Source: an uncultured Bacilli bacterium (GTDB lineage: Bacteria; Bacillota_I; Bacilli_A; RF39; UBA660). From it: a DNA stretch of 53,159 nt. Positions 9,473 to 52,571 of this stretch are shown in pieces. A program made the translations under genes and the position numbers. The stretch lies in NCBI GenBank assembly GCA_947625215.1, contig CANQNL010000003.1, positions 1 to 53,159 on the forward strand, read 5' to 3'. Below the pieces are notes generated by a model. That model saw only the letters and a list, made by a program, of their open reading frames with translations, had not been told where the DNA came from and did no database searches. Within the stretch, counting starts at the first letter, position 1. Every line of letters begins with the position of its first letter.

Positions 9473-9508
9473 TTGCCAAAAACCTGGGGGGGGGGGGGGG
9501 GGTATAAT
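9473..9508 (+). promoter_or_regulatory. Poly-G (G17) spacer promoter of P1
   Basis: TTGCCA(9473-78)-AAAACCT-G17-TATAAT(9503-08); spacer 24 nt. Confidence 0.85.
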
Positions 9509-9541
9509 GTTTATATAGTAAACTAGGTAAGGAGAAAATAT

Positions 9542-11074
9542 ATGAGCGAAAAAAGAAAGAGAAATATAATAATATTTTCATTATGTGGAGTACTATTATT
9601 AATGACTATCGGATATGCTGCCTTTAATACACTACTAAATATAAATGGGACAACAAGTATAACAAGTAACTGGGATATAAAAATAACAAATATTACTAGT
9701 AAAGATAAAATAGGAGATGCTTCTGATGAAGAATCACAAGTAGTAGATGATCTATCTGCTACATTTAAAGCAAATTTAGTAAGTCCCGGTGATTCCATAA
9801 CCTACGATATAACCGTTGAAAATAAAGGAAATATAAATGCCGAGTTAGATAGTATTGATGTTAGTGAAAACACTAACGAAAATATAAAAATAGACATTTC
9901 AGGAATAGCTGAAGGAGATAAATTAAATGCCAGTAGCACGGCAACATTAAGTGTAAAAGTAACATATAGTGATGATGTAACAACGCAGCCTGATAATCTA
10001 GAAACAGAAGTAACTATAACCTTAAATTATGTTCAGGAAGGAATGAGAACACTATTTCCAACTTCAATAGATTTTGAAACAGTATCAACAACTAATTCAA
10101 TAACCGTAACGGCAACAAAAGTAAGTGGGGCTACTTATGAATTTAAAAAAGATGGTGAAGCTTATATAAGTAATGGTAAAAATAATGTTTATACCTTTAG
10201 TGAAATAACTCATAATACAGAACATCAAATTCAAGTTAAAGTAACAAAAGGAGAAAATACTTTAGAATCTGAAACTAAACCGATAAGAACCAACACCTTA
10301 CAAGCGCCAACCATCTCTATATCTTCATATACCGTTAATATGACCTTTCCTGCAGAATGTGCAGATGGGACATATACTTGTTCATATACTTTATCAGGAG
10401 CTCTAACTGGGACAACAACTGTTACCTCAACATCAGCTAGTGTTACTAATTCGAACATTGGTGTCAGTTTAACTGTAAAAGCCGATGTTAGTGATGGATA
10501 TAATACTGTTTCACAGTCACGTACGATGGAAACAGGTAGTTGTTTTGTAGCTGGAACGAAAGTATTAACTGAAAATGGCTTAAAAAATATTGAAGAATTA
10601 AAAATAGGGGAAAAAGTATATTCATATAATGAAAAAACCGAAAAATCTGAATTAAAGCCAATAACTAAAGTATACGTGCGTGAAAGATATGGAATAGTAA
10701 CATTAAAATATGAAAAATTAGATAACATAAACGGAAAAGTATATAATAACATCGATACACATTTTAATAAAAAAGAAAAAAATAATGAAATACAATCAAC
10801 CTTTGATCATCCATATTATGTCATAAATAAAGGATGGGTGGTAGCATCAAAATTAGAAATAGGAGATAGGATATTATCTATAGATAATAGTGAAATAGTT
10901 GTAAGAAGCTTACAAACTAATGAAGTAGATAAAACAAAAGTATATAATATGGAGGTAGAAGACAATCACAATTATTATGTAGGCTATGATAATCTTTTAG
11001 TTCACAATGATGAAAATTGGGGAAATCCTATTATGCCTATGGCTGGGGATTGCACTCGACCTGGGGTATATTAG
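9542..11074 (+). CDS. Family member P1: exported modular protein with C-terminal Hint domain and 21-aa tail
   Basis: N-terminal basic+hydrophobic segment, NLVSPGD..Y.I.VEN.G domain, FN3-like segment, variable domain. Hint motifs CFVAGT (Cys1), STFDHPY (block B) and VYNMEVEDNHNYYV..LLVHN. Confidence 0.88.
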   Translation: MSEKRKRNIIIFSLCGVLLLMTIGYAAFNTLLNINGTTSITSNWDIKITNITSKDKIGDASDEESQVVDDLSATFKANLVSPGDSITYDITVENKGNINAELDSIDVSENTNENIKIDISGIAEGDKLNASSTATLSVKVTYSDDVTTQPDNLETEVTITLNYVQEGMRTLFPTSIDFETVSTTNSITVTATKVSGATYEFKKDGEAYISNGKNNVYTFSEITHNTEHQIQVKVTKGENTLESETKPIRTNTLQAPTISISSYTVNMTFPAECADGTYTCSYTLSGALTGTTTVTSTSASVTNSNIGVSLTVKADVSDGYNTVSQSRTMETGSCFVAGTKVLTENGLKNIEELKIGEKVYSYNEKTEKSELKPITKVYVRERYGIVTLKYEKLDNINGKVYNNIDTHFNKKEKNNEIQSTFDHPYYVINKGWVVASKLEIGDRILSIDNSEIVVRSLQTNEVDKTKVYNMEVEDNHNYYVGYDNLLVHNDENWGNPIMPMAGDCTRPGVY

Positions 11075-11085
11075 CTAATAATTTT

Positions 11086-11112
11086 AACCGCACCATCGTG
11101 GTGTGGTTTTTT
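11086..11112 (+). terminator. Intrinsic terminator after P1
   Basis: AACCGCACCA-TCG-TGGTGTGGTT hairpin followed by a T run. Confidence 0.75.
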
Positions 11113-11210
11113 ATAAAAATATTTATGATAATTTGGTAAATTTGTAATTGGATTATAAAAATAAGTCCTAATTCCAAATGTCAATTTACGGCAAAAATGC
11201 CCGAAAATGC

Positions 11211-11241
11211 TTGCCAGAAACCTGGGGGGGGGGGGTATAAT
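11211..11241 (+). promoter_or_regulatory. Poly-G (G12) spacer promoter of P2
   Basis: TTGCCA-GAAACCT-G12-TATAAT; spacer 19 nt. Confidence 0.85.
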
Positions 11242-11274
11242 ATACTTAGAGTAAACTAGATAGGAGAATAATGT

Positions 11275-12795
11275 ATGAGTGAAAAAAGAAAGAGAAATGT
11301 AATAATATATTCATTATGCGGAGTATTACTATTAATGACTATTGGATATGCCGCATTTAATACACTTTTAACGATAAACGGAACAACATCAATTAGTAGT
11401 AACTGGGATATAAAGATAACAAATATTACCAACAAAGATATAGTAGGTAAAGCTTCAGATGAAGAATCACAAGTAGTAGATGACTTAAAAGCTACCTTTA
11501 AAGCTAATTTAGTAAGCCCTGGAGATTCTATAACTTATGATATAACCGTAGAAAACAAAGGAAATATAAATGCTGAGTTAGATAGTATCGATGTTAGTGA
11601 AAACACCAATGAAAATATAAAAATAGTAACTTCAGGAATAGCTGAAGGTGATAAATTAAATCCTAGTAGTACGGCAACCTTAAGTGTAAAAGTAACATAT
11701 AGTGATGAAGTTACAACGCAACCTGATAATTTAAAAGCGGAAGTAACAATAACTTTAAATTATATTCAAGAAGGAACAGGAATGCCAGAAACAATAGATT
11801 TTGAAACAGAATCAACAACAAGAGCAATAACTGTAACTGCACCAGCAGTTAGAGGTGCTACATATGAATTTAAAAAAGATACTGAAGAATACGTAAGTAA
11901 TGATGACCCCACTAATAATATATATACCTTTGACCAAATAACTCATAATACTCAGCATAATATCCAAGTAAAAGTAACAAAAGGAAGCAAAGTAATTGAA
12001 TCAGATGTGAAACCTGTTAGTACTAATGCTTTACCATCTCCTTCTATCACTGGGTCGGGCGAGACCGCTTATATGACATTTCCAGAGGAATGCGCCACAG
12101 GTGTATTTACTTGTCAGTATCGTACAGTAACCGACGTTAGTAGCCAAAATGTCACAAGAAGTGTAACTTCGCAGTCAGCTTCCTGGACTATCCAAGTTCA
12201 ATATGTTGGTTCTGATACTTATGGCGTTCACGGGACCGTTTATGCTAGTGTATCAGATGGATTTAATAAGGTTGAGGTTTCTGCGGGTTTAGTGAAACAA
12301 TGCTTTGTGGCTGGAACGAAAGTCTGGGCAGAAAAAGGTTTAGTGAATATAGAAGATTTGAAAGATGGGGATAAAGTATATTCATATAATGAAAAAACAA
12401 GAAAAGTGGAATTAAATGAAATATATAATACATATAACCGAAAAACGGATAAACTAATAACTTTAAGATATGCAAAAAATAATAAGATAAAACCAAATTA
12501 TAATACAAATAATATAGAAGAACATTATAATTCATCATCATCAGAAGAAGATAATATAATTAAATGTACACTTACTCATCGCTTTTATGTAGTAGGAAAA
12601 GGCTGGACACCTGCTAAAAAAATAGAAGTAGGAGATGAAATATTATCAATAGATGGTAGTGAAATTATAATAACAGATATTCAAACAAATACAGTTAAGC
12701 CAACTGCAGTATATAACTTTAGTGTAGTAGGTAATCATAATTATTATGTAGGTATGGGACTACTTGTCCATAATAAATATATGGTAGGAGTGTAG
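11275..12795 (+). CDS. Family member P2: exported modular protein with C-terminal Hint domain and 6-aa tail
   Basis: Same N-terminus as P1; Hint motifs CFVAGT, CTLTHRF and VYNFSVVGNHNYYVGMGLLVHN, followed by KYMVGV*. Confidence 0.88.
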   Translation: MSEKRKRNVIIYSLCGVLLLMTIGYAAFNTLLTINGTTSISSNWDIKITNITNKDIVGKASDEESQVVDDLKATFKANLVSPGDSITYDITVENKGNINAELDSIDVSENTNENIKIVTSGIAEGDKLNPSSTATLSVKVTYSDEVTTQPDNLKAEVTITLNYIQEGTGMPETIDFETESTTRAITVTAPAVRGATYEFKKDTEEYVSNDDPTNNIYTFDQITHNTQHNIQVKVTKGSKVIESDVKPVSTNALPSPSITGSGETAYMTFPEECATGVFTCQYRTVTDVSSQNVTRSVTSQSASWTIQVQYVGSDTYGVHGTVYASVSDGFNKVEVSAGLVKQCFVAGTKVWAEKGLVNIEDLKDGDKVYSYNEKTRKVELNEIYNTYNRKTDKLITLRYAKNNKIKPNYNTNNIEEHYNSSSSEEDNIIKCTLTHRFYVVGKGWTPAKKIEVGDEILSIDGSEIIITDIQTNTVKPTAVYNFSVVGNHNYYVGMGLLVHNKYMVGV

Positions 12796-12821
12796 CAGAT
12801 AATCATAATTATTATGTAAGA

Positions 12822-13013
12822 GATGGAGCAACGGTCAAATATAAAGGTAATACTTATATTTATAAAATAACTAATATTTATAATGAAACCAAAGATGGAG
12901 ACGTTATGATATATAGAAATAAAAATAAATCCACTTTAACACTCATCACTTGTACAAAAAATAGTGATACTGAGCGAACTATATATATAGCTGAATTACA
13001 ATAAAAATAATTG
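12822..13013 (+). pseudogene. Sortase 3' fragment (192-bp direct repeat, copy 2)
   Basis: Encodes ...KYKGNTYIYKITNIY...TLTLITCTKNSDTERTIYIAELQ* with no start codon; about 94% identical to 9224-9415. Confidence 0.88.
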
Positions 13014-13107
13014 ATTTTAGAAAACTAACATCTATTTATTGTTAAGATGTTAGTTTTTTAATACCCATTTTTAAATATTTACATATAATACTTTAGGGGT
13101 GACAAAA

Positions 13108-13554
13108 ATGTATAAAATTTATGAAGTACAAATGGGTGATACTTTAGATAGTATTGCTAGAAAATTAGGAGTAAATTCTGATGTCCTTGCTACTTTAAAT
13201 GGATTAAATGTAATGGCACCTTTAATGCCACAAACCTATATTGTAATTCCAAGTACAGATTCATTATTTAACAAATACACAGTAAGACCAGGTGATACTC
13301 TTAATAATATTGCTGAAGCATATGATGTTGATTTAGGACAACTTGCTAAATTAAATGGTATAAAAGATGTCGATTATATTTATGCTGGTGAAGAACTTAT
13401 GGTACCAAAACCTGGGACTAAATTCTATATTACTGGCAGAGGTGATGCTCTAAATATGGTAGCAAATTTCTTTGGAACATCAGCAGGTCAGCTTCTAAAT
13501 CAAAATCCAAATATTGTTTTGGGTGAAGAACAATTAATAGTTTATAAGAAATAA
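13108..13554 (+). CDS. LysM repeat protein
   Basis: YEVQMGDTLDSIA, YTVRPGDTLNNIA and a third degenerate LysM. Confidence 0.9.
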   Translation: MYKIYEVQMGDTLDSIARKLGVNSDVLATLNGLNVMAPLMPQTYIVIPSTDSLFNKYTVRPGDTLNNIAEAYDVDLGQLAKLNGIKDVDYIYAGEELMVPKPGTKFYITGRGDALNMVANFFGTSAGQLLNQNPNIVLGEEQLIVYKK

Positions 13555-13612
13555 CTTCTTATAATCTTTTTTTTTATGCGATTTTGTTATATAATAATAT
13601 ATGGTGAGGATT

Positions 13613-14029
13613 ATGAAAAAAATAATTGCAGTATTAATTATGTTGACGTTATTATTTAGTATTACTGGTTGCGGAGGACCAAAGACTTATAAAGAAATTA
13701 GTTTTGAAGAACTAAATAAAAAAATAGATGCTAAAGAAGATTTTATTTTATTTATTGGTTCTGAAACTTGTAGTGCTTGTTCGGCATATAAAATAACGCT
13801 TAATAAAGTGATTGAAAAAAACAAAGTTGAAGTTAATTACATAGATATTAGTAAATTATCTGATGATGAAAATAGCGACTTATTAGCCAATTTTTACTTT
13901 TCTTCAACGCCAACTACCGTGTTTGTTGAAAAGGGAAAAGAAAAGGATACTAATGACAGATTAGTAGGAGCTCAAAAATATAGCAAAGTAGTAAAGAAAT
14001 TTAAAGAAAAAGGATATATAAAGGAGTAG
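13613..14029 (+). CDS. Thioredoxin-fold lipoprotein
   Basis: Lipobox-like SITGC, CSAC active site and STPT cis-Pro motif. Confidence 0.8.
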   Translation: MKKIIAVLIMLTLLFSITGCGGPKTYKEISFEELNKKIDAKEDFILFIGSETCSACSAYKITLNKVIEKNKVEVNYIDISKLSDDENSDLLANFYFSSTPTTVFVEKGKEKDTNDRLVGAQKYSKVVKKFKEKGYIKE

Positions 14030-14033
14030 ATAT

Positions 14034-15005
14034 ATGCAAGGAAACTATTTAGACCCAAAAGAATTTCCCGTAATTTGTAATTATTGTGAGGATTTAACTG
14101 CAAAAACATATGTGACAGATCCTGCTATTGCTAGAGATGAGGAAATAAAAAGAACAATAATGGTTTTATTAACTCCAGAAAAATCAGCTTTGTTAGTTGG
14201 TAAAGCTGGTATTGGTAAAACGGCCATTGTTGAAGGTATTTGCTATAGAATTCAAAAAGGTGAAGTTCCTAATGCTATTAAAGATCATCGAATTTTAAAA
14301 ATAAATTCATCATCAATGTTAGGTTCAATGATGGTTGATGGTAAAGAAGAATCAGTAACTAATTTATTAGTGGCCGAACTTAAGAGATGCCCTAAGGCTA
14401 TTTTATTTATCGATGAGGTTCATACCCTAATTGGTGGTTCAGCAGATGGACCTATGGATCTTGCTAATATTTTAAAGCCAGCCTTAGACCGTGGTGATAT
14501 TAAAGCAATTGGTGCAACTACGACAATTGAATATGAAACATATATCATCAAGGATAGAGCCTTTTTAAGACGTTTTGATAGAATTGATGTCGAGGAGCCA
14601 GATCACGATGCTACAGTTAGAATTCTTTTAGGAACAATTCCTAAAATTGAATATAGAACAGGTATCAAAATGCTTCCAAATGCTTATTTAACTGAAGAAC
14701 TTATGCATTCAATTGTATCAGCAACTTCAGAATTTAAACGTGTTTATGGTATTTCAGCAATGTATCCAGACGTTTCATTATCTGTTTTATCAGGTGCCTT
14801 TTCTAATGCTTTATTTGAAAACAGAACTATTGTTGGAATTTTAGATGTTTATATGGCAATTAGAAATAGTAAACGTATTTATCCTGATAGTAGGGTAAAA
14901 GAATGTGAAGCTTTTAGACAAAAATTTTCACGTGTATGTGCTGCCGAAAATATAGTTTTACCACCGGTAGTACTAGCGGATATCGATAATGATTTAGATT
15001 TATAA
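14034..15005 (+). CDS. Stand-alone ClpA/ClpB-type AAA+ ATPase (single D1-like domain)
   Basis: GKAGIGKT Walker A, ILFIDEVH Walker B, IGATT..EY and AFLRRF arginine finger; no N domain and no second ATPase domain. Confidence 0.82.
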   Translation: MQGNYLDPKEFPVICNYCEDLTAKTYVTDPAIARDEEIKRTIMVLLTPEKSALLVGKAGIGKTAIVEGICYRIQKGEVPNAIKDHRILKINSSSMLGSMMVDGKEESVTNLLVAELKRCPKAILFIDEVHTLIGGSADGPMDLANILKPALDRGDIKAIGATTTIEYETYIIKDRAFLRRFDRIDVEEPDHDATVRILLGTIPKIEYRTGIKMLPNAYLTEELMHSIVSATSEFKRVYGISAMYPDVSLSVLSGAFSNALFENRTIVGILDVYMAIRNSKRIYPDSRVKECEAFRQKFSRVCAAENIVLPPVVLADIDNDLDL

Positions 15006-15020
15006 AAAGGAGAATATGAT

Positions 15021-15548
15021 ATGGACAAAAATGTTAAAAAAATTGAAACTAAAAATTATATTATTTTAGCCGTAGTTTTAGTAGTAACAGTGATTGCCGT
15101 TTTTTATGCTAGAAGTTGGTATTTAGAGACTAAAAGTGTTACCGTCAATAGTTCTCAAATGTTAGAGGTAGTAAAAGAGATTCATCAAGAAGAATTAGAA
15201 AATTATACCTTAGAAAATCCGAGGTTCATATTATATGTTGCCTCTTCCCAGGATAAAAGTATATCAGAATTTGAAAAAGAATTAAAAAGAATGATTATAA
15301 GTGAGGAACTTGAAAATTATTTTCTTTATTTAAATAGTGATGAAATTCAAAAAAGTAAACTTAATAAAACATTAATTGAAATGGCTAAAAACGCTAGCGT
15401 AAGAAAAGATATAAGTAATGCCGATGAAGTTTCATTATATATAGTTGAAACAGGAAGAATTACAAAAGTAATTTCTAATGCTGAAAAATTATCAGCTCCA
15501 GAGATTAGAAATACTTTAACAAAATACGGAGTGATTGATAATGCTTAA
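15021..15548 (+). CDS. Membrane-anchored hypothetical protein, possibly a redox-inactive thioredoxin fold
   Basis: Single N-terminal TM helix; ILYV...FLYLN strand pattern without cysteines; overlaps trmL. Confidence 0.6.
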   Translation: MDKNVKKIETKNYIILAVVLVVTVIAVFYARSWYLETKSVTVNSSQMLEVVKEIHQEELENYTLENPRFILYVASSQDKSISEFEKELKRMIISEELENYFLYLNSDEIQKSKLNKTLIEMAKNASVRKDISNADEVSLYIVETGRITKVISNAEKLSAPEIRNTLTKYGVIDNA

Positions 15549-16047
15549 TGTGGTTCTTTATGCACCAGAAATTCCGCAAAATACAGGTAACATAATGCGT
15601 ACCTGTGCAGCCACTAATACTAAATTGCATTTGATTAAACCACTAGGTTTTAGTTTAGATGAAAAACAAATAAAAAGATCAGGCGCTAATTATATTAATG
15701 AATGTGACTACACAGTATATGAAAATTTTGAGGAATTTGAAAAAGTTAATAAAGGGGAATATTATTTTTTAACAAGATATGGGCATAAACCACATACGTC
15801 ATTTGATTATAGCGATAATAAAAAAAATATATATTTGATTTTTGGAAGAGAAAGTACCGGAATTCCAAAAGAAATTTTAAAAGATCATTTAAATACTTGT
15901 CTTAGAATACCAATGACTGATAAAGTGCGCGCACTTAATTTATCGAATTGTGTAGCTATAATGGTATATGAAGTTCTAAGACAACAAAATTATAATAACC
16001 TTTTAAGAGAAGAGCCTTTTAAAGGAAAAGATTATTTAGAAAAATAA
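15541..16047 (+). CDS. trmL: tRNA (cytidine(34)-2'-O)-methyltransferase
   Basis: VVLYAPEIPQNTGNIMRTC, IFGRESTG and RALNLSN SPOUT motifs. Confidence 0.93.
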   Translation: MLNVVLYAPEIPQNTGNIMRTCAATNTKLHLIKPLGFSLDEKQIKRSGANYINECDYTVYENFEEFEKVNKGEYYFLTRYGHKPHTSFDYSDNKKNIYLIFGRESTGIPKEILKDHLNTCLRIPMTDKVRALNLSNCVAIMVYEVLRQQNYNNLLREEPFKGKDYLEK

Positions 16048-16058
16048 GGAGGGGTAAA

Positions 16059-16877
16059 ATGGCATTTTTAACAAATTGGATTTTTTGGGCAATTTTAGTA
16101 GCTATTATAGTTGTCCTTGCAATAATTGGTTATTTAGCTGAAGGAACTAAATTAGGAAGGAAACAAGCAGAAAAACAAACGACTGTTACACCAAATCCTT
16201 CTGCAGTTAATGAGACGTCTACAGAAGCGGCAGCGCCAGCACCAAGTGCTTGGACTGGGGAAATTAAAAAAGAAGATACTAGGCACGAAACCGTTCATCA
16301 AGCTTCTTCGATTGATGATTGGACAAAGATGCCTGGTGTTAATGAACCAGAAACTCAAAATCCAGCAACTCCAGAGCCTGAAGAAAAATTATTTACACAA
16401 GCTGAAATTCATACAACAAAGCCAAGTGCTGAAATGGTAAATCCAAATCCAACACCGACTGCTAAAATTGAAATTGAGCAGCCTGTTTCATCAGCTACTA
16501 ATACGGTTCCAAGTGAGGCACCAGCTCCTATAGAAGATTTATCAACAGTTTCTGCGAAAGAACCAACTGCTGCGGAAGTTCAGACTCCTACGCCAGAAAT
16601 TAAGGCATCAGAACCTGTTACTTCACCAGCGCCTAAAGCACCTATAGAAGCGCCAAAAACTGGTGAAACATCTGATGTGTTTAATACACCATCGCCAGAA
16701 CCTACCACCTTAGCTTCAGAACCTAAAGCGACTATAGAAACACCAAAAACAATTGAAACTCCTGATGTATTTAGTGCTCCAGCGCCAACTGTTGAAACTC
16801 CTGCCCCAGCTGAAGTTCCAGCTTCAGTACCAGAACCAGAAATAAATCAACCGGCAAATGATGATGTCTGGAAATAA
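16059..16877 (+). CDS. Membrane-anchored Pro/Thr/Glu/Ala-rich low-complexity protein
   Basis: N-terminal TM helix and a long PEST-like tail with the internal repeat PKAPIEAPKTGETSDVF / PKATIETPKTIETPDVF. Confidence 0.75.
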   Translation: MAFLTNWIFWAILVAIIVVLAIIGYLAEGTKLGRKQAEKQTTVTPNPSAVNETSTEAAAPAPSAWTGEIKKEDTRHETVHQASSIDDWTKMPGVNEPETQNPATPEPEEKLFTQAEIHTTKPSAEMVNPNPTPTAKIEIEQPVSSATNTVPSEAPAPIEDLSTVSAKEPTAAEVQTPTPEIKASEPVTSPAPKAPIEAPKTGETSDVFNTPSPEPTTLASEPKATIETPKTIETPDVFSAPAPTVETPAPAEVPASVPEPEINQPANDDVWK

Positions 16878-16943
16878 GCGCTTCAATATTTGTTAAAACT
16901 AGGAGGAATATAATATACTTGTAAGAAATTAGGAGACTTAGGT

Positions 16944-18143
16944 ATGTTAGAAAAAAAGAAAAGAAATGTAATAATAATTTCGTTATGCGGAGTACTATTA
17001 TTAATGACTATCGGATATGCTGCGTTTAATACACTACTTAATATAAACGGAACAACAAGTATAACTAGTAACTGGGATATAAAAATAACAAGTATTACTA
17101 GTAAAGATATAGTAGGAAAAGCTACCGATGAAGATTCACAAGTAGTAGATGATTTGTCAGCTACTTTTAAAGTTAATTTAGTAAGTCCAGGAGACTCGAT
17201 AACTTATGAAATCGCTGTTGAAAATAATGGAAATATAGATGCTGAAGTAGCCAGAGTAAAATTAAGTGAGCCCGAAAATGATGCCATAAAATTTGAAACA
17301 AATGGCATAGAAGAAAGCGAAATATTAACGGCAAATGGCGGAACTGATATATTAACCGTAAAAGTCACATATAGTGATGAAATAACCAAACAACCTGATA
17401 ATTTAGAAGCAAGTTTCACCGTAACTTTAGATTATATAGAAAAAGGTAAAAAATCTGAATGGGTACCAATTGATGGGATAATTCCAGCCGAATTAGTTAA
17501 AAATTTAACAACTGAAGGTGATGGTTTATATGCCGATACCTATGAAAGTGGCAGATATATTTATAAAGGAGTTAATCCTAGCAATTATATAACCTTTAAT
17601 AATCAAGCATATAGGATAATAGCAATTGAAACTGATGGTACACTTAAAATAATGCCAAATGAACGCATAAATGTTTTAAATTGGGATTCAGGTGGTTCAA
17701 ATACTTGGGCCAGTTCAAGCTTAAAAGCATATTTAAATGATACCTATTATAATGGAATTACGGCAAATAAGAGTGCTATTATATCTCACGATTGGTATGC
17801 AGGAGTACTTTCTTCAGCATCGATAAATATGTCAGCAGAAAAAAGTACAATTGTTACTGATTATGTGGGAATTCCTTCAGTAAGTGATTATTTAAAAGCC
17901 GGAGGAAAAAGTTCGTGGATGAATAAAGCAGGTTTATATTATTGGTTAATTAATCCATACTATAATACTTATAGCCATAATATTTTCTTTGTAGATGCCT
18001 CACGATCTGGTGAGCTTGGAATATATGGAAATCCGAGTGAGTTATCTTCTGTTTTCCCGGCTATTTTTCTAAAAGCTGATACAAGAATAAGTGGTGATGG
18101 TCAAGAAGATCATCCATATATAATCGAAAATTATAAATTATAA
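16944..18143 (+). CDS. Family member P3: conserved N-terminus with a DUF6273-like C-terminal head
   Basis: Family N-terminus followed by GRYIYKGVNPSNYITFN..YRII, SSLKAYLN and YWLINP...VFPAIFLK...GDGQEDHPY. Confidence 0.8.
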   Translation: MLEKKKRNVIIISLCGVLLLMTIGYAAFNTLLNINGTTSITSNWDIKITSITSKDIVGKATDEDSQVVDDLSATFKVNLVSPGDSITYEIAVENNGNIDAEVARVKLSEPENDAIKFETNGIEESEILTANGGTDILTVKVTYSDEITKQPDNLEASFTVTLDYIEKGKKSEWVPIDGIIPAELVKNLTTEGDGLYADTYESGRYIYKGVNPSNYITFNNQAYRIIAIETDGTLKIMPNERINVLNWDSGGSNTWASSSLKAYLNDTYYNGITANKSAIISHDWYAGVLSSASINMSAEKSTIVTDYVGIPSVSDYLKAGGKSSWMNKAGLYYWLINPYYNTYSHNIFFVDASRSGELGIYGNPSELSSVFPAIFLKADTRISGDGQEDHPYIIENYKL

Positions 18144-25938: not shown

Positions 25939-26065
25939 CATAATAAAAACGCACCATATTTTTACTTATAAAAAGCAGAATATAATTAAGTAAAAAATGA
26001 CTTGGTGCGCATATGGAGCCTAAGCCCCTTTAGATAAGCTTTACTTACCTAAAGGAGCCTAGGCT
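25939..26065. repeat. 127-bp double-hairpin element, copy A (downstream of P4)
   Basis: Matches 45697-45823 with 2 mismatches. Contains the arms CGCACCA..TTTTTACTTA / TAAGTAAAAA..TGGTGCG and CCTTTAG..TAAG / CTTA..CTAAAGG. Confidence 0.9.
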
Positions 26066-26079: not shown

Positions 26080-27102
26080 TCAATCAGCACAATTCCATGC
26101 ATTAACCCACTCTAAATCTGAGGTAGTATTATACCCATCGCTTACTTCTGCCAATATATTGACTCTTTGATTCCAATTTCCAATATACACATTTATTGTT
26201 GGAGACGTTACTGTTACCTTTTCATTTCGACCACCAGAAAATGTATATGAGCAAATATATGTACCGTTACATTCAGCAGGGAATGTCATACTAGTAGAAC
26301 AGTCAGGAGTTACACTTGGTGATGGCAACAATAAGGTACTAACAGATTTAACTTCTGATTCTATCTCTTTTCCATCTTTTGTTGTTAGTTTAACTTGAAT
26401 ATTATGTTCCGTATTATGGGTTATTTGGTCAAAGATGTGCGTAGAACTATCTTCAACATAATCTGCTGTATCTAATTTATATTCATATTTTGTTATTTCT
26501 GCCCTTGGTTCTATTTTTGGTGTTACCGTTATTGACCTAGTTGTTGATACTGTTTCAAAATCTACTATAGGATCTGGGTCTGGTATTACCTCTCCTTTTC
26601 CTAATTGTTCAAAGGTAAAGCTTATCTTTACTTCACTACTTCCTATTTCTGGTACGCCGTTAAAATCTGGATTATATTCGATTTTTACTTTGATTATTTT
26701 TACCCCTTTACTTGATAATGTCTCTCCCTTTTCATATCCACTTGTTGTTATTTTTATAGCATCGTGATTACTTACAGTTGTCTGTTCAACATTTGTAAGT
26801 ACAGCATCCAATGTTCCTTTATTTTCGATAGTTACATCGTATTCTATGGAATCCCCTTTTTGATATAAGTTAGCTTCCATACTGGCCGTTAATTCTGACC
26901 AAACTGGATTATTTACTTCTTCGGCCATATTAGTTATATTAGTTCTTTCTACATTAGTTATTTTTATTTCCCAGTTACTTGTTATACTAGTTGTTCCATT
27001 TATATCAAGGAGTGTATTAAAAGCGGCATACCCTACAGTCATAAAGAGTAATACTCCGCATAGCGAGCATATTATTATATTTCTTTTTTTGCGTTCACTC
27101 AT
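26080..27102 (-). CDS. Family member P4: conserved N-terminus, FN3-like segment and variable Cys domain, no Hint
   Basis: MSERKKRNIIICSLCGVLLFMTVGYAAFNTLL; ends VSDGYN...NAWNCAD*. Confidence 0.85.
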   Translation of the reverse strand: MSERKKRNIIICSLCGVLLFMTVGYAAFNTLLDINGTTSITSNWEIKITNVERTNITNMAEEVNNPVWSELTASMEANLYQKGDSIEYDVTIENKGTLDAVLTNVEQTTVSNHDAIKITTSGYEKGETLSSKGVKIIKVKIEYNPDFNGVPEIGSSEVKISFTFEQLGKGEVIPDPDPIVDFETVSTTRSITVTPKIEPRAEITKYEYKLDTADYVEDSSTHIFDQITHNTEHNIQVKLTTKDGKEIESEVKSVSTLLLPSPSVTPDCSTSMTFPAECNGTYICSYTFSGGRNEKVTVTSPTINVYIGNWNQRVNILAEVSDGYNTTSDLEWVNAWNCAD

Positions 27103-27282: not shown

Positions 27283-27507
27283 ATGAAAATAGTTGCCAAT
27301 AACTACAAATCAAATGAAATTATGAGAATAATAAGGGAGTGGACAGAATTATCACAAAAAGATTTTGCTAAATCAATTGGTAGAAGTCGTGATAGTATTA
27401 ATAGTATTGAAAATGGAAGAAATAGAGTCTTCTTAAATACCTTATTAGAGATCGCTAAAGAGCACGATATTACAATTACAATCGAAAAGAAAACTAAAGT
27501 TCATTAA
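27283..27507 (+). CDS. XRE-family HTH transcriptional regulator
   Basis: IREWTELSQKDFAKSIGRSRDSINSIENGR; divergent from P4. Confidence 0.88.
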   Translation: MKIVANNYKSNEIMRIIREWTELSQKDFAKSIGRSRDSINSIENGRNRVFLNTLLEIAKEHDITITIEKKTKVH

Positions 27508-45023: not shown

Positions 45024-45057
45024 ACATTTTTCTCCTTACCTAGTTTATTCTATAAAT

Positions 45058-45598: not shown

Positions 45599-45696
45599 AA
45601 TTATCCCCCTATCTTTGTTAATTCAAGTGTAATATATCTTTGGACATTTGTTCAATAGATTTTTAATATTTTCTTTAAAAGTGCACTTCCCTTATA

Positions 45697-45823
45697 CATA
45701 ATAAAAACGCACCATATTTTTACTTATAAAAAGCAGAATATAATTAAGTAAAAAATGACTTGGTGCGTATATGGAGCCTAAGCCCCTTTAGATAAGCTTT
45801 ACTTACCTAAAGGAGCCTGGGCT
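45697..45823. repeat. 127-bp double-hairpin element, copy B (downstream of P6)
   Basis: Matches 25939-26065 with 2 mismatches; abuts the P6 stop codon. Confidence 0.9.
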
Positions 45824-46863
45824 TAGTAATACAAACACGGTGTAGATGAGTTAGATGAACAAGAATTAGTTACTGTATTATATCCATCACTAACACTTGT
45901 TGAAGTAATAGTACTACCACCAGTCATATAAGTATCGCATGAACATAAGCCAGCATTACATACAGAAGAACAATTACTACAACCAGAAACACTCAAACTA
46001 CAGGTTAATCCATTTGAACATCCTTCAGGAAAACTAGCCTGGCCACCAACAGGTACTCTAGAAGCTGAACACCCAGTTGTATTTTCAAGTAATAAAGTAC
46101 TAACAGGTTTAACTTCTGATTCTATCTCTTTTCCATCTTTTGTTGTTAGTTTAACTTGAATATTATGTTCCGTATTATGCGTTATTTGGTCAAAGATGTG
46201 CGTAGAACTATCTTCAACATAATCTGCTGTATCTAATTTATATTCATATTTTGTTATTTCTGCCCTTGGTTCTATTTTTGGTGTTACCGTTATTGACCTA
46301 GTTGTTGATACTGTTTCAAAATCTACTATAGGATCTGGGTCTGGTATTACCTCTCCTTTTCCTAATTGTTCAAAGGTAAAGCTTATCTTTACTTCACTAC
46401 TTCCTATTTCTGGTACGCCGTTAAAATCTGGATTATATTCGATTTTTACTTTGATTATTTTTACCCCTTTACTTGATAATGTCTCTCCCTTTTCATATCC
46501 ACTTGTTGTTATTTTTATAGCATCGTGATTACTTACAGTTGTCTGTTCAACATTTGTAAGTACAGCATCCAATGTTCCTTTATTTTCGATAGTTACATCG
46601 TATTCTATGGAATCCCCTTTTTGATATAAGTTAGCTTCCATACTGGCCGTTAATTCTGACCAAACTGGATTATTTACTTCTTCGGCCATATTAGTTATAT
46701 TAGTTCTTTCTACATTAGTTATTTTTATTTCCCAGTTACTTGTTATACTAGTTGTTCCATTTATATCAAGGAGTGTATTAAAAGCGGCATACCCTACAGT
46801 CATAAAGAGTAATACTCCGCATAGCTAGCATATTATTATATTTCTTCTTTTGCGTTCACTCAT
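45823..46863 (-). pseudogene. Family member P6: P4-type constant region with an in-frame TAG at codon 13 and a Cys/Ser-rich variable tip
   Basis: ATG at 46863 with the family RBS. Codon 13 is TAG (46825-27) where P4 has TCG; the remainder is open to PCLYY*. Confidence 0.85.
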
Positions 46864-46897
46864 ACATTCTTCTCCTTACCTAGTTTACTCTAAGTAT

Positions 46898-46928
46898 ATT
46901 ATACCCCCCCCCCCCAGGTTCTTGACAA
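46898..46928 (-). promoter_or_regulatory. Poly-G (G12) spacer promoter of P6
   Basis: Minus strand TTGTCA-AGAACCT-G12-TATAAT; spacer 19 nt. Confidence 0.85.
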
Positions 46929-47003
46929 GTATTTTTGGGGTATTTTGTGAAAATTTTGCAATATAAAAACAAGCACGTTCAAATATGCTTGCTTTTATAT
47001 ATT

Positions 47004-48017
47004 CTATTTATTTGGATCTACTAATATTTTGACAGCTGGGTCAGTTCCAGAAGTTAATCTCTCATAAGAATGTTGTACTTCTTCTAAACTAACAATATCA
47101 TCGATAAATTTAGTTACATCTATCTGCTTTTTAGCCATTAAATTTATACAAGTTTCAAATTCTAATTTAGTATAAGCAATTGCTCCCTGAACTGTAAGTT
47201 CGTGCATAACAGCAATAACAGTTGGAATAGTAATAGGTTCTGATGATACACCAACTAAAACTACTGTTCCTCCTGGTTTAGTAAGCATTAAAGCCGAAGT
47301 TACAGCTGGTGCATTACCGCAGCATTCAATAACAGCATCAAATTTAGCAGATAATTTTTCTGTTAATTTAGCATTTTTAGCATCTATCCATTCATCGGCA
47401 ACTCCTAAATCTACGGCTTTCTTTCCTCTCGCTTCATTGGTTTCTGATACAACGACATAACTAGCGCCTTCCATTTTGGCAAACATTGCTGAAACAAGAC
47501 CAATTATACCGCCTCCAATAACTAATACTTTTTGTCCCATTTTAATATCAGCTAAATGTGCGGCGTGAAGACCAACTGCGGTAGGTTCTACCATCGCAAC
47601 TTCTTCATCACTAACACTATCTGGTACTTTAAAAACCATATCAGGTCTAAGAGCCATTTTAGGCGCAAGTCCTCCTGGATTATCTAATGATAACCCGGTG
47701 GCATTATTCCAAGTTTCTAGACAATATTGAACATTACCACTTTCACAGGCTTCACAATGCCCACAAGGTGAAATTGGTAAGGCGGTTACTCTATCTCCTA
47801 CTTTTAAATCTTTTCTACTACCAGGATCGGTTACCACTCCACAATATTCGTGCCCCATAACTAAACCTTGGGGTGCGCCACCTACCCAATAATGTAAATC
47901 AGAACCACAAATTCCACATTTTTTAACGTCAACGATTACACTTCCATTTTTTGAAACAGGTGGTTCTATTTCCTTAATTTCAAATTCTTTTACTCCTTTA
48001 ATTGCTACTGCTTTCAT
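47004..48017 (-). CDS. Zn-dependent medium-chain alcohol dehydrogenase
   Basis: CGICGSDLH, GHEY.G, CGHCEAC..C, VEP.AV and GGGIIG. Confidence 0.92.
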   Translation of the reverse strand: MKAVAIKGVKEFEIKEIEPPVSKNGSVIVDVKKCGICGSDLHYWVGGAPQGLVMGHEYCGVVTDPGSRKDLKVGDRVTALPISPCGHCEACESGNVQYCLETWNNATGLSLDNPGGLAPKMALRPDMVFKVPDSVSDEEVAMVEPTAVGLHAAHLADIKMGQKVLVIGGGIIGLVSAMFAKMEGASYVVVSETNEARGKKAVDLGVADEWIDAKNAKLTEKLSAKFDAVIECCGNAPAVTSALMLTKPGGTVVLVGVSSEPITIPTVIAVMHELTVQGAIAYTKLEFETCINLMAKKQIDVTKFIDDIVSLEEVQHSYERLTSGTDPAVKILVDPNK

Positions 48018-48460
48018 TTTTTCCTCCCCTTTTTCTTCTTATTTTTTCTTCGTCTTATTATTTTTAAGATTATGTAAAATAGTATAAGTGTTCCTAAGAC
48101 AAATATACCATACATTATATGGTCGCTAGTTAATTCAATTTTTTTAGTTTTCTTTTCTTCTTCATCAGCAGGGACTTTAATAACATATTCGCCATCTCTA
48201 GTATATAAATAATTTTCTCTAGCGTACCTAGCTACATAATCTTTATCTTGAAGTTTATTTATTTCTGTTTTTAAGTCCTCCGATTTGCCTTTTAAATCAT
48301 TTAATTCCTCTTTTAAACTAGCTTCTTCGTGGTGTAGTTTATAAATAGAATTAACGGTGGCAACTAAGGTAAAAGCACAATACCCAATTGCTATAATAAC
48401 AATTGGGGTAATTACAGTAAGTCTTCTTTTAGCAGTTTTAGTTACCTTTTTATTAGCCAT
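48014..48460 (-). CDS. divIC: Septum formation initiator DivIC/FtsB-like, with an extra C-terminal TM helix
   Basis: TM helix, coiled coil and YVARYARENYLY..GE; follows yabP-yabQ as in Bacilli. Confidence 0.82.
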   Translation of the reverse strand: MANKKVTKTAKRRLTVITPIVIIAIGYCAFTLVATVNSIYKLHHEEASLKEELNDLKGKSEDLKTEINKLQDKDYVARYARENYLYTRDGEYVIKVPADEEEKKTKKIELTSDHIMYGIFVLGTLILFYIILKIIRRRKNKKKKGRKK

Positions 48461-48489
48461 TTTCTATCACCACTACTATAAAAAGTATA

Positions 48490-48762
48490 TCATTTTTTAA
48501 AATGTTTGGCAATTACTTGTTCAAGATAATAGCCCCCTATTAACATTATTAAACAGTAGGGATGAAAAACTGCATTATTTATTTCTTTAAGCAAAATGAA
48601 ATATATAAGCACACTTATTAAAACAACTAAAAAAGTCCCTAAGAATTTAATCCATTTTTTACTATTATAAATTATTTTATGATTAACATTTATAAATAAG
48701 GAAAAAAAGATTCCATATAAAAAAGAAAAAAGTAATGCAAAAATTTGAGTTTTTAGATCCAT
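48490..48762 (-). CDS. yabQ: Spore cortex protein YabQ-like (short)
   Basis: Hydrophobic 90-aa protein with a QIFALLFSFLYG start, located between yabP and divIC. Confidence 0.7.
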   Translation of the reverse strand: MDLKTQIFALLFSFLYGIFFSLFINVNHKIIYNSKKWIKFLGTFLVVLISVLIYFILLKEINNAVFHPYCLIMLIGGYYLEQVIAKHFKK

Positions 48763-49049
48763 TATTTAAACAGTTTTGTAAATATGCTACTTTCTTTATC
48801 TTTTTTTCCATTTTCAGTATAATTTAAGCTATTTACCTTTCCTTTAATGGAAACATTGCCTTGATAAGTATCTAATTTAATTATTTCTAACTCTTCACCC
48901 TTAATAATTAAATCACCCATCGTGGTTTCCAAATAAAATTCATCTTCATCAAAACTATCAATTTTTTTTACTCCTGTAATAACTATATTTTTTCTCTCAT
49001 TAAGCGTAATTCCGTGCGTTAATGAAGAAATTGCTTCCATCTTGTCCAT
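48762..49049 (-). CDS. yabP: Sporulation protein YabP
   Basis: HGITLNERKNIVITGVKKIDSFDE...LETTMG.L.IKGEEL...V.IKG. Confidence 0.9.
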   Translation of the reverse strand: MDKMEAISSLTHGITLNERKNIVITGVKKIDSFDEDEFYLETTMGDLIIKGEELEIIKLDTYQGNVSIKGKVNSLNYTENGKKDKESSIFTKLFK

Positions 49050-49088
49050 AATTTTCCTCCTAGAAAATTATATGCACAAAAAAGAAGA

Positions 49089-49355
49089 CTATTCATCTTC
49101 TTTTAAATTATTATATTCTTCGATAATTGCATCTTCAAACATCTTACGACAATCTTGTGTAATTGGGTGTGCAATATCGTGGTACTCATCATTATTGGTT
49201 TTGCGACTTGGCATAGCAATAAATAATCCACCATCACCCTCGATAATTCTGATGCCGTGAACTGCAAAGCAATCATCTAATACCACAGATGCAATTCCAC
49301 GAATACGAGAATTCTCCTTTTCAATCTTTCTAACGTTTATTGATGTAATTTTCAA
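49089..49355 (-). CDS. spoVG: SpoVG
   Basis: MKITSINVRK...ASVVLDDCFAVHGIRIIEG..GLFIAMPSRK...DIAHPI; TTG start. Confidence 0.95.
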   Translation of the reverse strand: MKITSINVRKIEKENSRIRGIASVVLDDCFAVHGIRIIEGDGGLFIAMPSRKTNNDEYHDIAHPITQDCRKMFEDAIIEEYNNLKEDE

Positions 49356-49422
49356 GCTAACCTCTCCCTTCTGGTACCTTAAATTCCAATTTAAGTATAC
49401 AATATTTTAAAGAAAAAAACAA

Positions 49423-49671
49423 CTATTTATCAAAAATTTTAATTGTTTTTGTAATAATATCTGCATATGAGAAAGATTTTACACTTTTATTTTCGTCCAT
49501 TACTTCAACTAAAAAGATACAATTATATAATTTTGTAATCTTTGCCTTATAAGTTTCGTGCTTATTACGACCAAGATTATACTTGATAGTTAAAGGTTTC
49601 CCAATATAACTACTTAAAGTCTTTCTAATAATTTCATTATCACATACACCTTTATCTAGGATATCCCACAT
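49423..49671 (-). CDS. veg: Veg family protein
   Basis: YIGKPLTIKYNLGRNK...LY..IF.VE...SFSYADIIT; follows yabG. Start codon uncertain. Confidence 0.82.
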   Translation of the reverse strand: MWDILDKGVCDNEIIRKTLSSYIGKPLTIKYNLGRNKHETYKAKITKLYNCIFLVEVMDENKSVKSFSYADIITKTIKIFDK

Positions 49672-50434
49672 ACATTGTTCCTTTCGTAATAATTCCTCCA
49701 ATTCCATCTTTACCGTATTTGGTTTTTTCTAATATTTCTTTTAAATTAATATCTTTGTTAATATCCGATAAACTCATTTTAGCCGCTACAATGGCTGGAT
49801 CTAGAGCGTGAATATTTATTCTTTTAGGACTTGAAGCAAAATTAGCTCCCGCTTTTATAAGCTCTTCATAATAAGAAGCACACGCGCCAGCAATTATAAT
49901 TAATTTTTCGTGACTGCTTTCATATTTACGAGCATTTTTAACCGCTTCAGCAAAATATAAACTTGACTTATAAGCTGATAAATCATCCGTATTTCCTTTA
50001 CGTTTATTATAAGCATCGTGTCCTGTAATTACCACGATATTTGGTTTATACTCTTCTAATAATTTTATAATATTTCTAGGAATATCTTCTTCTTTTTCAT
50101 TAATACCCATTGCCCAAATATTTATTTTTTTATAATACTCAAGACACCTATTTAAGTAATCCATATCACTATCAATATGAAGAATTTTCCCTGGTAAATA
50201 AAAATAGTCATTACGATCTAAATCAACTTTTGTCTCTAGTCTATCTAAAAAGTCTTTTTCGTGTTCGATATCTTTATCATCGTGTTTCTTTAAATCATCG
50301 ATATTGGCATCAGCGATTAATCTTATATTCATTCCTTTTAATTTAACTTCATTTCCGTTTATTTCAATAATCTTAAAGACGACATCATTATCATAAGAAT
50401 TACGCGTTACTAAATCACCTACATTAAATTCCAT
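49652..50434 (-). CDS. yabG: Sporulation peptidase YabG
   Basis: VGDLVTRNSYDND, PGKILHIDSD, VVITGHDA, GACASYYE and ASSPKRINIHALDP. Confidence 0.93.
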   Translation of the reverse strand: MEFNVGDLVTRNSYDNDVVFKIIEINGNEVKLKGMNIRLIADANIDDLKKHDDKDIEHEKDFLDRLETKVDLDRNDYFYLPGKILHIDSDMDYLNRCLEYYKKINIWAMGINEKEEDIPRNIIKLLEEYKPNIVVITGHDAYNKRKGNTDDLSAYKSSLYFAEAVKNARKYESSHEKLIIIAGACASYYEELIKAGANFASSPKRINIHALDPAIVAAKMSLSDINKDINLKEILEKTKYGKDGIGGIITKGTMYVGYPR

Positions 50435-50702
50435 ATTATCACCCAAACAATTATATGAATTAAAAACTAAAAGTATTCTTAACACTTTTAGTTTTTTAAA
50501 ATATAAAAATTACCTTCATTATTGCTTTGATTAATATTTAAATCAGTCAAAAACGCTGAAATAGTTATTGTAATTATCAAAAAGGTACATAGTAAAATAG
50601 TTGTAATCAAGTTTGCTTTATTTAAACGAACTATCTTAATCACCTCCCTTTTATCGTCAAAAATTGCACTTTATATATAATAAAATTATGATCGGTGATA
50701 AT

Positions 50703-50927
50703 ATGATTAAATTGCAAAGATTAAAAGATTTAAGAGAAGATATGGATCTTAATCAAACTGATTTATCTAAAATTCTTAAAATGTCACAGGCACAATATTC
50801 ACGAATTGAAACTGGTGAAAATATGATAAGTTTAGATAGTCTAATTAGATTATCAGAATTTTATAATGCCAGTACAGATTATATTTTAGGTTTAACTGAT
50901 GAAAAAAGGCCATATTCTAAAAGATAA
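50703..50927 (+). CDS. XRE-family HTH transcriptional regulator
   Basis: RLKDLREDMDLNQTDLSKIL.MSQAQYSRIETG...LSEFYNASTDYILGL. Confidence 0.9.
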   Translation: MIKLQRLKDLREDMDLNQTDLSKILKMSQAQYSRIETGENMISLDSLIRLSEFYNASTDYILGLTDEKRPYSKR

Positions 50928-51111
50928 TTTAATCTTAATTAATTATATTCTTAATATGTATTATAAATGTCAAATCTAAATACCCTTATAATAAGAAAAA
51001 CATATCTTTAAATATTTAAAGGTATGTTTTATTCGCATAAAAGTAACATTTTAGAAAAATACATTTCTTTTTGACTAAAAAATGTAAAGAAAAAAAGGAA
51101 TTTTAAATTCC

Positions 51112-52509
51112 CTAATAATTTTCTATTGTATATGGTTTATCTTGGGTACCTGCTCCTGATAATTTAATATCGGATTTTAGATAGAGAGTTGGAACAACAT
51201 TACGTTCCCAACCTGCAGCATCCATACCAAGACTACCATTAGATAAAAACACAACTATTCCATCAGCATTGTCATTTGTACCTACTCCTGGTCGATATTC
51301 TGGTAAAATAGTCCAAGCAGCCACATCATCAAGAGAATGATGCATCCACTGAGTATTTCCACAAAATGTTACATTCCAAATCGCATTCGGGCTTTGCCCA
51401 CATTGTGCTTGATTTGAATTTGACTTTAAAAAATCACTTGGTGATATAAGCCCAATATAACTTTTGGAGCTGTATTGTTTTTCTTCAGAAACAATGGTAG
51501 ATAAACTTTGTGATGCCCAAGTAATTGGCCCATAATACCAATTATGATTTTCTATATATGTTTTAAAAGTTGGATTTATAGTATCATAATATGTATTATT
51601 TAAATAATTTTTTATATTAGAGTCGCTTTCGACTGTTCCACTTACTCCATCTCTTGAAAAAAAATGATTATCAAAATTTTCTGTTTCAGCCCAAACACCA
51701 CAGGCACATTTTGGTTCATCGCATTGCACATAACTACAATATCCAGTAGTTCTAGCATCTTTAGAATCAAATGCCCTCTTTTCTGGCAATGCATTATTTC
51801 GCATTATCTTAATAGTACCATCAGTTTCAATTGCTATTATTCGCCATTGTTCTCCATTAAAGGTTATATAGTTATTTGGGTTTCCACCTTTATATACATA
51901 TCTTCCCGGTTCTACAGGGTCATTATATAATCCATCTTCTGCAGTTACTATAGGCACTTCTATTCCTTTCATATCGATAACTGTACTAGGTTCCACTTCT
52001 GATTTATTCTTTTGTACATAATCTAATTTCATTTCAAAACTTGCAGTCTTATTTTCTGGTTGCTTTGTTACTTCAGGATTATATTCTATCTTTACTGTTA
52101 AGGTTGCACTATGATCTGCTAGTAACTCATCTCCTGCTGCAAGTCCAGTTGTTGTTATTAATATGGCTTCATTATTTAACTGTGGCAAGATTATTTTATT
52201 TAGCTCAGCATCTATTGTTCCTTTATTTTCTATAGTCACATCATAAGTTATATAATCTCCTGGACTTACTAAATTTACATTAAATGTTGCTTCTAAATCT
52301 TCATATTTTGGAAATTCCTCTACTGAAGATGCATCTCCTTCTTTTGCATTTTGTTTAATGTCTGTTATTTTTATATCCCAGTTACTAGTTATACTTGCTG
52401 TTCCATTTATATTTAAAAGTGTATTAAAAGCCGCATACCCTACAGTCATTAATAATAGCACTCCGCATAACGTACATATTACTATATTTCTTTTTTTCTT
52501 TTCACTCAT
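51112..52509 (-). CDS. Family member P7: conserved N-terminus with a DUF6273-like C-terminal head
   Basis: Family N-terminus followed by GRYVYKGGNPNNYITFNGEQWRII, IKNYLNNTYY, IGLISPSDF and VVPTLYLK...GAGTQDKPY. Confidence 0.82.
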   Translation of the reverse strand: MSEKKKRNIVICTLCGVLLLMTVGYAAFNTLLNINGTASITSNWDIKITDIKQNAKEGDASSVEEFPKYEDLEATFNVNLVSPGDYITYDVTIENKGTIDAELNKIILPQLNNEAILITTTGLAAGDELLADHSATLTVKIEYNPEVTKQPENKTASFEMKLDYVQKNKSEVEPSTVIDMKGIEVPIVTAEDGLYNDPVEPGRYVYKGGNPNNYITFNGEQWRIIAIETDGTIKIMRNNALPEKRAFDSKDARTTGYCSYVQCDEPKCACGVWAETENFDNHFFSRDGVSGTVESDSNIKNYLNNTYYDTINPTFKTYIENHNWYYGPITWASQSLSTIVSEEKQYSSKSYIGLISPSDFLKSNSNQAQCGQSPNAIWNVTFCGNTQWMHHSLDDVAAWTILPEYRPGVGTNDNADGIVVFLSNGSLGMDAAGWERNVVPTLYLKSDIKLSGAGTQDKPYTIENY

Positions 52510-52543
52510 ACATTTTTCTCCTTACCTAGTTTACTCTATAAAT

Positions 52544-52571
52544 ATTATACCCCCCCCCAGGTTTTTGGCAA
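52544..52571 (-). promoter_or_regulatory. Poly-G (G9) spacer promoter of P7
   Basis: Minus strand TTGCCA-AAAACCT-G9-TATAAT; spacer 16 nt. Confidence 0.85.

Follow-up and report, generated by a model that had tools for sequence, protein, structure and literature searches.

How is a promoter to be read when most of the distance between its -35 and -10 elements is a run of a single base, and could such a run act as a switch? The question arises in a stretch of 53,159 nucleotides (nt) from an uncultured Bacilli bacterium (GenBank assembly GCA_947625215.1, contig CANQNL010000003.1, positions 1 to 53,159; the whole stretch is called the window here), in which five promoters, each preceding one paralogue of the same gene family, have a tract of guanines between the two hexamers. 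A first-pass annotation of the window had singled out these promoters and proposed that their tract lengths determine which family members are expressed. Here we ask what the tracts are, whether they are real, what they control, and which explanation accounts best for them in the window and in related genomes.

When the five regions are read and aligned, a common layout is evident: a -35 hexamer TTG(C/T)CA, a 7-nt segment (A/G)(A/G)AACCT, a run of n guanines (Gn) and the -10 hexamer TATAAT. The five promoters are:

P1, + strand: -35 TTGCCA at 9473-9478, AAAACCT, G17 at 9486-9502, -10 TATAAT at 9503-9508; spacer 24 nt
P2, + strand, 11211-11241: -35 TTGCCA at 11211-11216, GAAACCT, G12 at 11224-11235, -10 TATAAT at 11236-11241; spacer 19 nt
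P3, - strand: -35 TTGCCA at 45088-45083, AAAACCT, G12 at 45075-45064, -10 TATAAT at 45063-45058; spacer 19 nt
P4, - strand: -35 TTGTCA at 46928-46923, AGAACCT, G12 at 46915-46904, -10 TATAAT at 46903-46898; spacer 19 nt
P5, - strand: -35 TTGCCA at 52571-52566, AAAACCT, G9 at 52558-52550, -10 TATAAT at 52549-52544; spacer 16 nt

At all five the spacer is 7 + n nt, the G lies on the coding strand, and the hexamers TTGCCA and TATAAT make 11 of 12 matches to the sigma-A-type consensus; these are promoter-like elements in which the G run alone sets the distance between -35 and -10. The first-pass annotation had given the same coordinates, G counts (17, 12, 12, 12 and 9) and spacers (24, 19, 19, 19 and 16 nt), and our reading and alignment bear them out, as they do its remark that long G runs are confined to these sites: in a window of about 29% GC, the next longest run of G or C is 6 (the longest run of A or T is 9). 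Words of eight Gs occur at the five sites only, against 0.04 expected from dinucleotide-preserving shuffles, and a search for the composite motif, TTGYCARRAACCT plus 8 G or more, returns the same five sites and no others (+ strand, two; - strand, three), against 0.00 expected, so that chance is excluded. The existence of the G tracts is firm and doubt is confined to their exact lengths, which may be off by a base or more since the counts are taken from one assembly.

The tract sits within a compact conserved unit. In the 25 nt preceding it the five paralogues have 76-92% identity, and the leader between TATAAT and ATG, 39-40 nt long and furnished at all five promoters with a strong ribosome-binding site TAAACTAGGTAAGGAGAA, has 73-97%; the first 150 nt of coding sequence have 75-92%, i.e. 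hexamers and leader are conserved no less than the coding sequence. Farther upstream identity drops to 23-57% and homology fades above about -50, indicating that the conserved or duplicated unit begins just upstream of the -35. The main difference among these cassettes is the length of the tract. Terminators lie upstream, called by a prediction tool at 11086-11108 before P2 and at 52695-52678 before P5, while weaker structures of a hairpin and a T run, recognized by eye, precede P1 and P4 (hairpin at 46961-47000); every gene thus appears to be transcribed as a separate unit, whose promoter the terminators would insulate from read-through. A known RNA element in the leaders was considered and ruled out, as Rfam and tRNA scans returned a tRNA-His at 988-1063 as their sole match.

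The genes that follow the five promoters are listed below, with lengths in amino acids (aa); PT-HINT/BIL denotes a Hint domain of the PT-HINT or bacterial intein-like type.

9542-11074, + strand: family gene 1, 510 aa; signal/anchor helix, Ig-like N-terminal domain, FN3-like domains, C-terminal PT-HINT/BIL domain
9526-9534, + strand: Shine-Dalgarno (SD) sequence of family gene 1, GGTAAGGAG
11275-12795, + strand: family gene 2, 506 aa; PT-HINT/BIL C-terminus
45023-44022, - strand: family gene of P3, 333 aa; Cys-rich tail
46863-45823, - strand: family gene of P4; in-frame TAG at codon 13
52509-51112, - strand: family gene of P5, 465 aa; a different C-terminal module, also found in the gene at 16944-18143

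Reading frames are intact in four of the five. In the remaining one, at 46863-45823, codon 13 reads TAG (46827-46825, - strand) where a near-identical twin at 27102 has TCG, and the gene is either a pseudogene or the victim of a base-call error. There are also pieces of Hint-domain sequence: a remnant at 43952-43827 (- strand) is found downstream of the short family gene at 45023-44022, and a fragment at 12775-12825 (+ strand) downstream of gene 2. Moreover, the 3' end of a sortase gene together with its terminator (9219-9418) is repeated after gene 2 at 12817-13016 with 93% identity, and the tandem of P1, gene 1, P2 and gene 2 is thus bracketed by 200-nt direct repeats.

What could a G run of variable length do in this position? 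Long G:C runs gain and lose units by slipped-strand mispairing at rates far above those of ordinary mutation, a property expected from about 8 G/C upwards, a length that all five tracts exceed, and RNA polymerase carrying sigma-70 or sigma-A needs about 17 ± 1 base pairs (bp) between the hexamers. We consider it likely that the family is subject to slipped-strand phase variation of transcription acting through spacer length. Runs of at least 9 G:C pairs would slip during replication and so shift the -35/-10 distance; given the requirement for about 17 ± 1 bp, a tract with n = 9-11 would make an active promoter, and at other lengths the promoter would be weak or silent. Switching between ON and OFF would then be stochastic, heritable and reversible for each gene, whatever the state of the other genes, and a population would carry many combinations of proteins that have the N-terminal module in common and differ in their C-terminal modules. 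On the lengths in the assembly, P5 (16 nt) would be marginally ON, at the edge of the range, P2-P4 (19 nt) would need one deletion to reach 18 nt and two to reach 17 nt, and P1 (24 nt) would be deeply OFF. P5 is also the sole one of the five that a standard promoter scan accepts (11/12 matches), a scan that requires a spacer of 16-18 nt as a rule of thumb, not as a measurement. The first-pass annotation had relied on a preference for about 17 nt, and this preference does extend to poly-G spacers: in porA and tp0126 a poly-G tract lies between -35 and -10, and the 17-nt optimum has been shown experimentally (PMC7864442).

The same architecture is seen in relatives. When genomes were scanned with the family alignment, 64 loci were recovered, and a metagenome scan added 15. 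The 64 loci all come from gut metagenome-assembled genomes (MAGs) of uncultured 'Bacilli', 'Tenericutes' or 'Firmicutes', and their N-terminal identity is at most 60%, except for four short fragments (70%, 82%, 59% and 55%). For 60 starts of family genes, 130 nt or more of sequence upstream was available. Tracts, defined as at least 8 G or at least 12 T within 160 nt upstream, were counted at these starts, and a homopolymer is present at 22 of them: G in 13 and T in 9. The tracts range from G8 to G22 or from T15 to T29, the run is always on the coding strand, and wherever the hexamers are readable it lies between a -35-like and a -10-like hexamer, as in these examples:

TTGACAAAGTA-G15-TATAAT
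TTGCCAAAAAC-G14-TATAAT
TTGACAATAAA-G13-TATACT
CCTTG-T17-GGGTTATAAT

Here too, conserved cassettes are distinguished mostly by how long the tract is, those with G at L049 (G15), L057 (G14) and L038 (G9-T-G5) as well as those with T at L007 (T20), L047 (T17) and L073 (T19). Two loci whose coding starts are about 95% identical likewise differ in their tracts, G13 in L026 and G22 in L074. The carriers of T15-T29 are L007, L008, L023, L033, L047, L048, L056, L062 and L073, one copy having T29; the tract there stands in a conserved context, (A)ATATTAC(C)TTG-Tn, and the TTG with the first T's could itself form a -35. What is kept across the clade, then, is a homopolymer and its position, while its base and length are not, which is the pattern expected if mutability itself is selected.

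These data also bear on a reading in which the tracts are effectively fixed, each serving as a protein-binding or DNA-structure element or as an over-long, activator-dependent spacer under conventional regulation with no slippage. Promoters of the MerR type have spacers of 19-20 bp, three of the five in the window are exactly 19 nt, and most of the G-type relatives are at 19-20 nt; the T-tract of the Mycoplasma agalactiae vpma promoter, which has no role in variation (PMC2268961), also shows that a tract need not be a switch. However, the tracts vary in length from 9 to 17 in the window alone and from 8 to 22 among relatives, and the exchange of G for T at the same position according to lineage makes a sequence-specific binding site hard to sustain. 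The spacer has no dyad symmetry, and the five promoters have neither conserved inverted repeats nor operator-like motifs in common. We therefore regard a fixed element as rather unlikely. Phase variation by an invertible promoter was considered separately and rejected, as no inverted repeats are common to the five promoter regions and no recombinase was found among the 43 open reading frames (ORFs) of the window scanned with Pfam.

Several observations weigh against slippage through the spacer as we propose it, in addition to the vpma precedent. The tract lengths come from a single consensus and are possibly miscalled, and three of the five are equal (G12). The G17 tract of P1 is 6-8 steps from the ON range, too far for a practical switch, and one of the tract-driven genes (46863-45823) carries a nonsense mutation. 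The length comparisons run between paralogues and between species, not within one population. Finally, the G-type spacers of the clade are concentrated at 19-20 nt, with 2 of 13 within 16-18 nt. This agrees with a mostly OFF family, but a shifted optimum, a fixed function or a bias in the consensus could account for it as well. As a variant of the spacer-length switch, poly-G spacers could be optimal at about 19 nt, owing to the helical geometry of G:C tracts, in which case G12 would be the ON state.

Could the tracts have been introduced by the sequencing itself? The window species is nearly absent from public data: exact-protein look-ups of its flanking or family genes gave either nothing or ENA contigs of 1-3 kb at 2-3x coverage, and a metagenome scan for the full promoter pattern had zero matches. 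Contigs repeatedly break exactly at a tract. L065, from the window's own species and next to P1, ends at ...AAACCTG, i.e. at the first G; L043 and L077 begin at TATAAT or TAAT, at a point where L082 reads TTGACAATA-G16-TATAAT; and L058, L061 and L081 begin inside the G run or at the -10. Such breaks recur across short-read contigs of several projects and count among the evidence for switching by slippage. They also lend some support to the suggestion that the G runs are artefacts of sequencing or assembly, for instance dark-cycle poly-G of two-colour chemistry, as do the errors to which homopolymers are prone on every platform. The runs, however, are internal to a 53-kb contig, have conserved promoter halves on both sides, occur five times in one orientation relative to the gene, and turn up again in independent assemblies that differ in project and assembler, all of which makes an artefact highly improbable. 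As short-read assemblies are systematically broken by the tracts at the family's promoters, MAG catalogues under-represent both the family and its regulation.

The five tract-driven genes are not the whole family: tblastn and repeat analysis find at least eight family members in the window, five with tracts and three further ones, and two of the family have ordinary promoters or no tract. The three are:

16944-18143, + strand: tract-less family member with no good -35, starting 66 nt after the preceding gene
27102-26080, - strand: family member with a canonical promoter, TTGACA at 27223-27218, 17 nt, TATAAT at 27200-27195
53159-53028, - strand: further PT-HINT family member, 3' end only, cut by the window end

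The suggestion that few members are expressed at a time can accordingly be kept for the tract-driven subset only, and fails for the tract-less genes at 27102 (TTGACA-17-TATAAT) and 16944; two members with ordinary promoters would stand outside tract control. Upstream of the gene at 16944, the sequence CTAGGAGGAATATAATATACTT (within 16880-16943) resembles a poly-G cassette whose tract has degraded and whose -35 has been lost; like the interrupted tract of L038 (G9-T-G5) among the relatives, it looks like a stage of tract decay. At the canonical promoter of the gene at 27102, a palindrome GAGTATTGACAATACTC (27228-27212, - strand) overlaps the promoter and encloses its -35, and a divergent gene for a 61-aa HTH_3 (XRE-type) protein (about 27322-27507, + strand) adjoins it; the HTH_3 gene and the palindrome look like a classical repressor-operator pair for this one family member. 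Further members with no poly-G occur on two ENA contigs that apparently belong to the window species (L083, 2060-3478, and L084, 1-60). The former has a longer leader, an ordinary-looking TATAAT and a second family gene directly after it, apparently in the same operon, and upstream of the latter the sequence reads GATAGAAGGTATAAT.

The gene at 27102-26080 has its twin at 46863-45823. From about codon 10 the two are about 100% identical over some 750 nt, the final part of the coding sequence, about 250 nt, is unrelated, and the 3' flanks are again about 95% identical (27085-25928 against 46846-45686, - strand); their promoters are wholly different, canonical at 27102 and poly-G12 at 46863. The mosaic suggests that gene conversion or cassette exchange between members took place recently, and it speaks for a reading in which the tract genes are mostly silent archival copies and variation arises mainly as they are recombined or converted into copies with ordinary promoters (such as that at 27102), the off-length promoters being decaying relics. 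The Hint-domain remnants and the nonsense codon are consistent with that reading, as are the decayed-looking tract at 16944 and the interrupted one in L038. Yet all tract-bearing copies retain near-consensus -35 and -10 hexamers, a strong SD, an ATG and a signal sequence, features normally missing from silent cassettes; four of the five reading frames are intact, the conservation of hexamers and leader equals or exceeds that of the coding sequence, and recombination and slippage can coexist. We consider silent archives unlikely, and retain switching through spacer length as the preferred reading.

What, then, would be switched? The N-terminus of every member consists of a basic stretch, a hydrophobic helix, the sequence G-Y-A-A-F-N-T and a conserved domain of about 120 residues. 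Homologues have the N-terminal 165 or so residues in common, and their C-termini vary, with PT-HINT, DUF6273, DUF285/LRR_5 or Flg_new repeats. Pfam matches in the N-terminal part are all below threshold (DUF7507, CARDB and Peptidase_M73), the last of these (PF12389) matching just one of the five proteins, with 19.6 bits where 22.5 is the cut-off. The C-terminal domain is clearer: genes 1 and 2 carry a PT-HINT or bacterial intein-like domain, with scores for PF07591 of 68.2 and 58.0 bits, respectively (cut-off 27.7). Gene 1 as modelled by AlphaFold, with a mean predicted local distance difference test score (pLDDT) of 72, has a helix at residues 3-30, a beta-sandwich at 46-165, FN3-like structure to about 327 and then the Hint domain; its best fold match in the PDB is 2lwy, the BIL domain of Clostridium thermocellum (E = 1.4e-4), and its remaining PDB fold matches are FN3/Ig arrays. 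Common to the family are a signal or anchor helix and an Ig-like N-terminal domain, and together with the modular architecture they lead us to predict that it consists of exported, modular surface or secreted proteins. Exported and surface proteins are the usual cargo of contingency loci.

Two more specific assignments were rejected. Only 21 residues (gene 1) and 6 residues (gene 2) follow the ...VHN motif of the Hint domain, so that these genes do not encode polymorphic toxins, in which PT-HINT is joined to a toxin domain and an immunity gene accompanies it. A lipoprotein signal was ruled out by eye, as there is no conserved lipobox and the Cys of FSLCG is not kept in relatives. The signal region, with its basic stretch, hydrophobic helix and G-Y-A-A-F-N, does resemble that of the SipW-dependent TasA/camelysin proteins, but the relationship is below every threshold: by sequence there is no NCBIfam match, no PDB sequence match and no score above the PF12389 cut-off, and no SipW gene is present in the window. 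When modelled alone, the N-terminal domain (pLDDT 89) has no structural neighbour at E ≤ 0.001, and the TasA fibre 8aur ranks second as a weak match (E = 0.031, template modelling (TM) scores 0.39/0.26).

The setting of the family is chromosomal. Flanking genes encode IF-2, NusA, TyrRS, TrpRS, CdaA, a ClpB-like ATPase and a sortase, and the window contains the sporulation genes for CotJB, GerQ, YabG, YabP and YabQ, which mark the host as a spore-forming member of the Bacillota. GC skew and gene orientation both reverse near position 26000, with + strand genes and positive skew to the left and - strand genes and negative skew to the right; the reversal at about 26 kb may be a replication terminus or a mere switch in gene orientation. 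Under either reading all five G tracts are on the G-rich strand.

The literature that we searched describes neither the family nor homopolymers in the promoters of these gut Bacilli, an absence that is not proof of novelty. The mechanism is of a textbook kind, and the organism, the gene family and the clade-wide duality of G and T appear undescribed in that literature; the window system is probably a real and previously undescribed example of a well-known kind of switch. More tentatively, it is possible that this is an old contingency system spread across a clade of gut Bacilli that are commensals and form spores. It would then be the first multi-locus simple sequence repeat (SSR) 'phasome' described in Bacillota outside pathogens, with the position of the spacer homopolymer kept and its base exchanged, with slippage layered on gene conversion of C-terminal modules, and with Hint/BIL autoprocessing in some members. 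To our knowledge, multi-locus phase variation by slippage has been found almost only in host-adapted pathogens, namely Neisseria, Haemophilus, Campylobacter, Helicobacter, Treponema and the mycoplasmas. The restriction of multi-locus phase variation to pathogens is posed as an open question in a recent review (PMC11868660). If switching does take place at these tracts, bet-hedging with a large family of modular exported proteins would extend across an entire clade of uncultured gut Bacilli, all by the same device, and this would bear on how commensals escape immunoglobulin A (IgA) or phages, or change their adhesion.

How does the window compare with systems in which such switches are established? 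In porA of Neisseria meningitidis, as in the window, poly-G makes up most of the spacer in front of a surface-protein gene, and expression is tied to about 17 nt (PMC7864442). porA, however, is a single locus of a Gram-negative pathogen with about 9-11 G, whereas the window has a multigene family in an AT-rich, spore-forming commensal of the Bacillota, with tracts of up to G17 (G22 in relatives), for which we infer the switching. Treponema tp0126 and the tpr genes (E, G, J and L) resemble the window genes in being paralogous surface-protein genes, each with a poly-G tract of its own at the promoter, and the tpr-associated tracts of Treponema pallidum vary in length within isolates (PMC7864442). 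The tract of tp0126 lies between -35 and -10, as in the window; that of the tpr genes is found just upstream of the transcription start, where 8 G or fewer are permissive (PMC7864442). Both differ from the window system in belonging to a spirochaete pathogen, in encoding outer-membrane proteins and in being an unrelated gene family.

The mycoplasmas offer the phylogenetically nearest case (Bacillota/Mollicutes). There vlp, maa2 and vmm are switched by insertions and deletions in the spacer (PMC2268961), and vlp of Mycoplasma hyorhinis has in common with the window a multigene family of surface proteins, a spacer repeat of its own at each promoter and combinatorial ON/OFF states (PMC2268961, PMC11868660); maa2 of M. 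arthritidis and vmm of M. mycoides are grouped with it as spacer-repeat systems. The T-tract relatives of the window organism resemble these A/T-type mycoplasma spacer repeats. The vlp repeat is poly-A and that of vmm consists of TA units, and the products are lipoproteins with internal repeats. In the window, by contrast, the repeat is poly-G in DNA of about 29% GC, and the products are Ig-like/FN3/Hint proteins with a non-lipoprotein signal.

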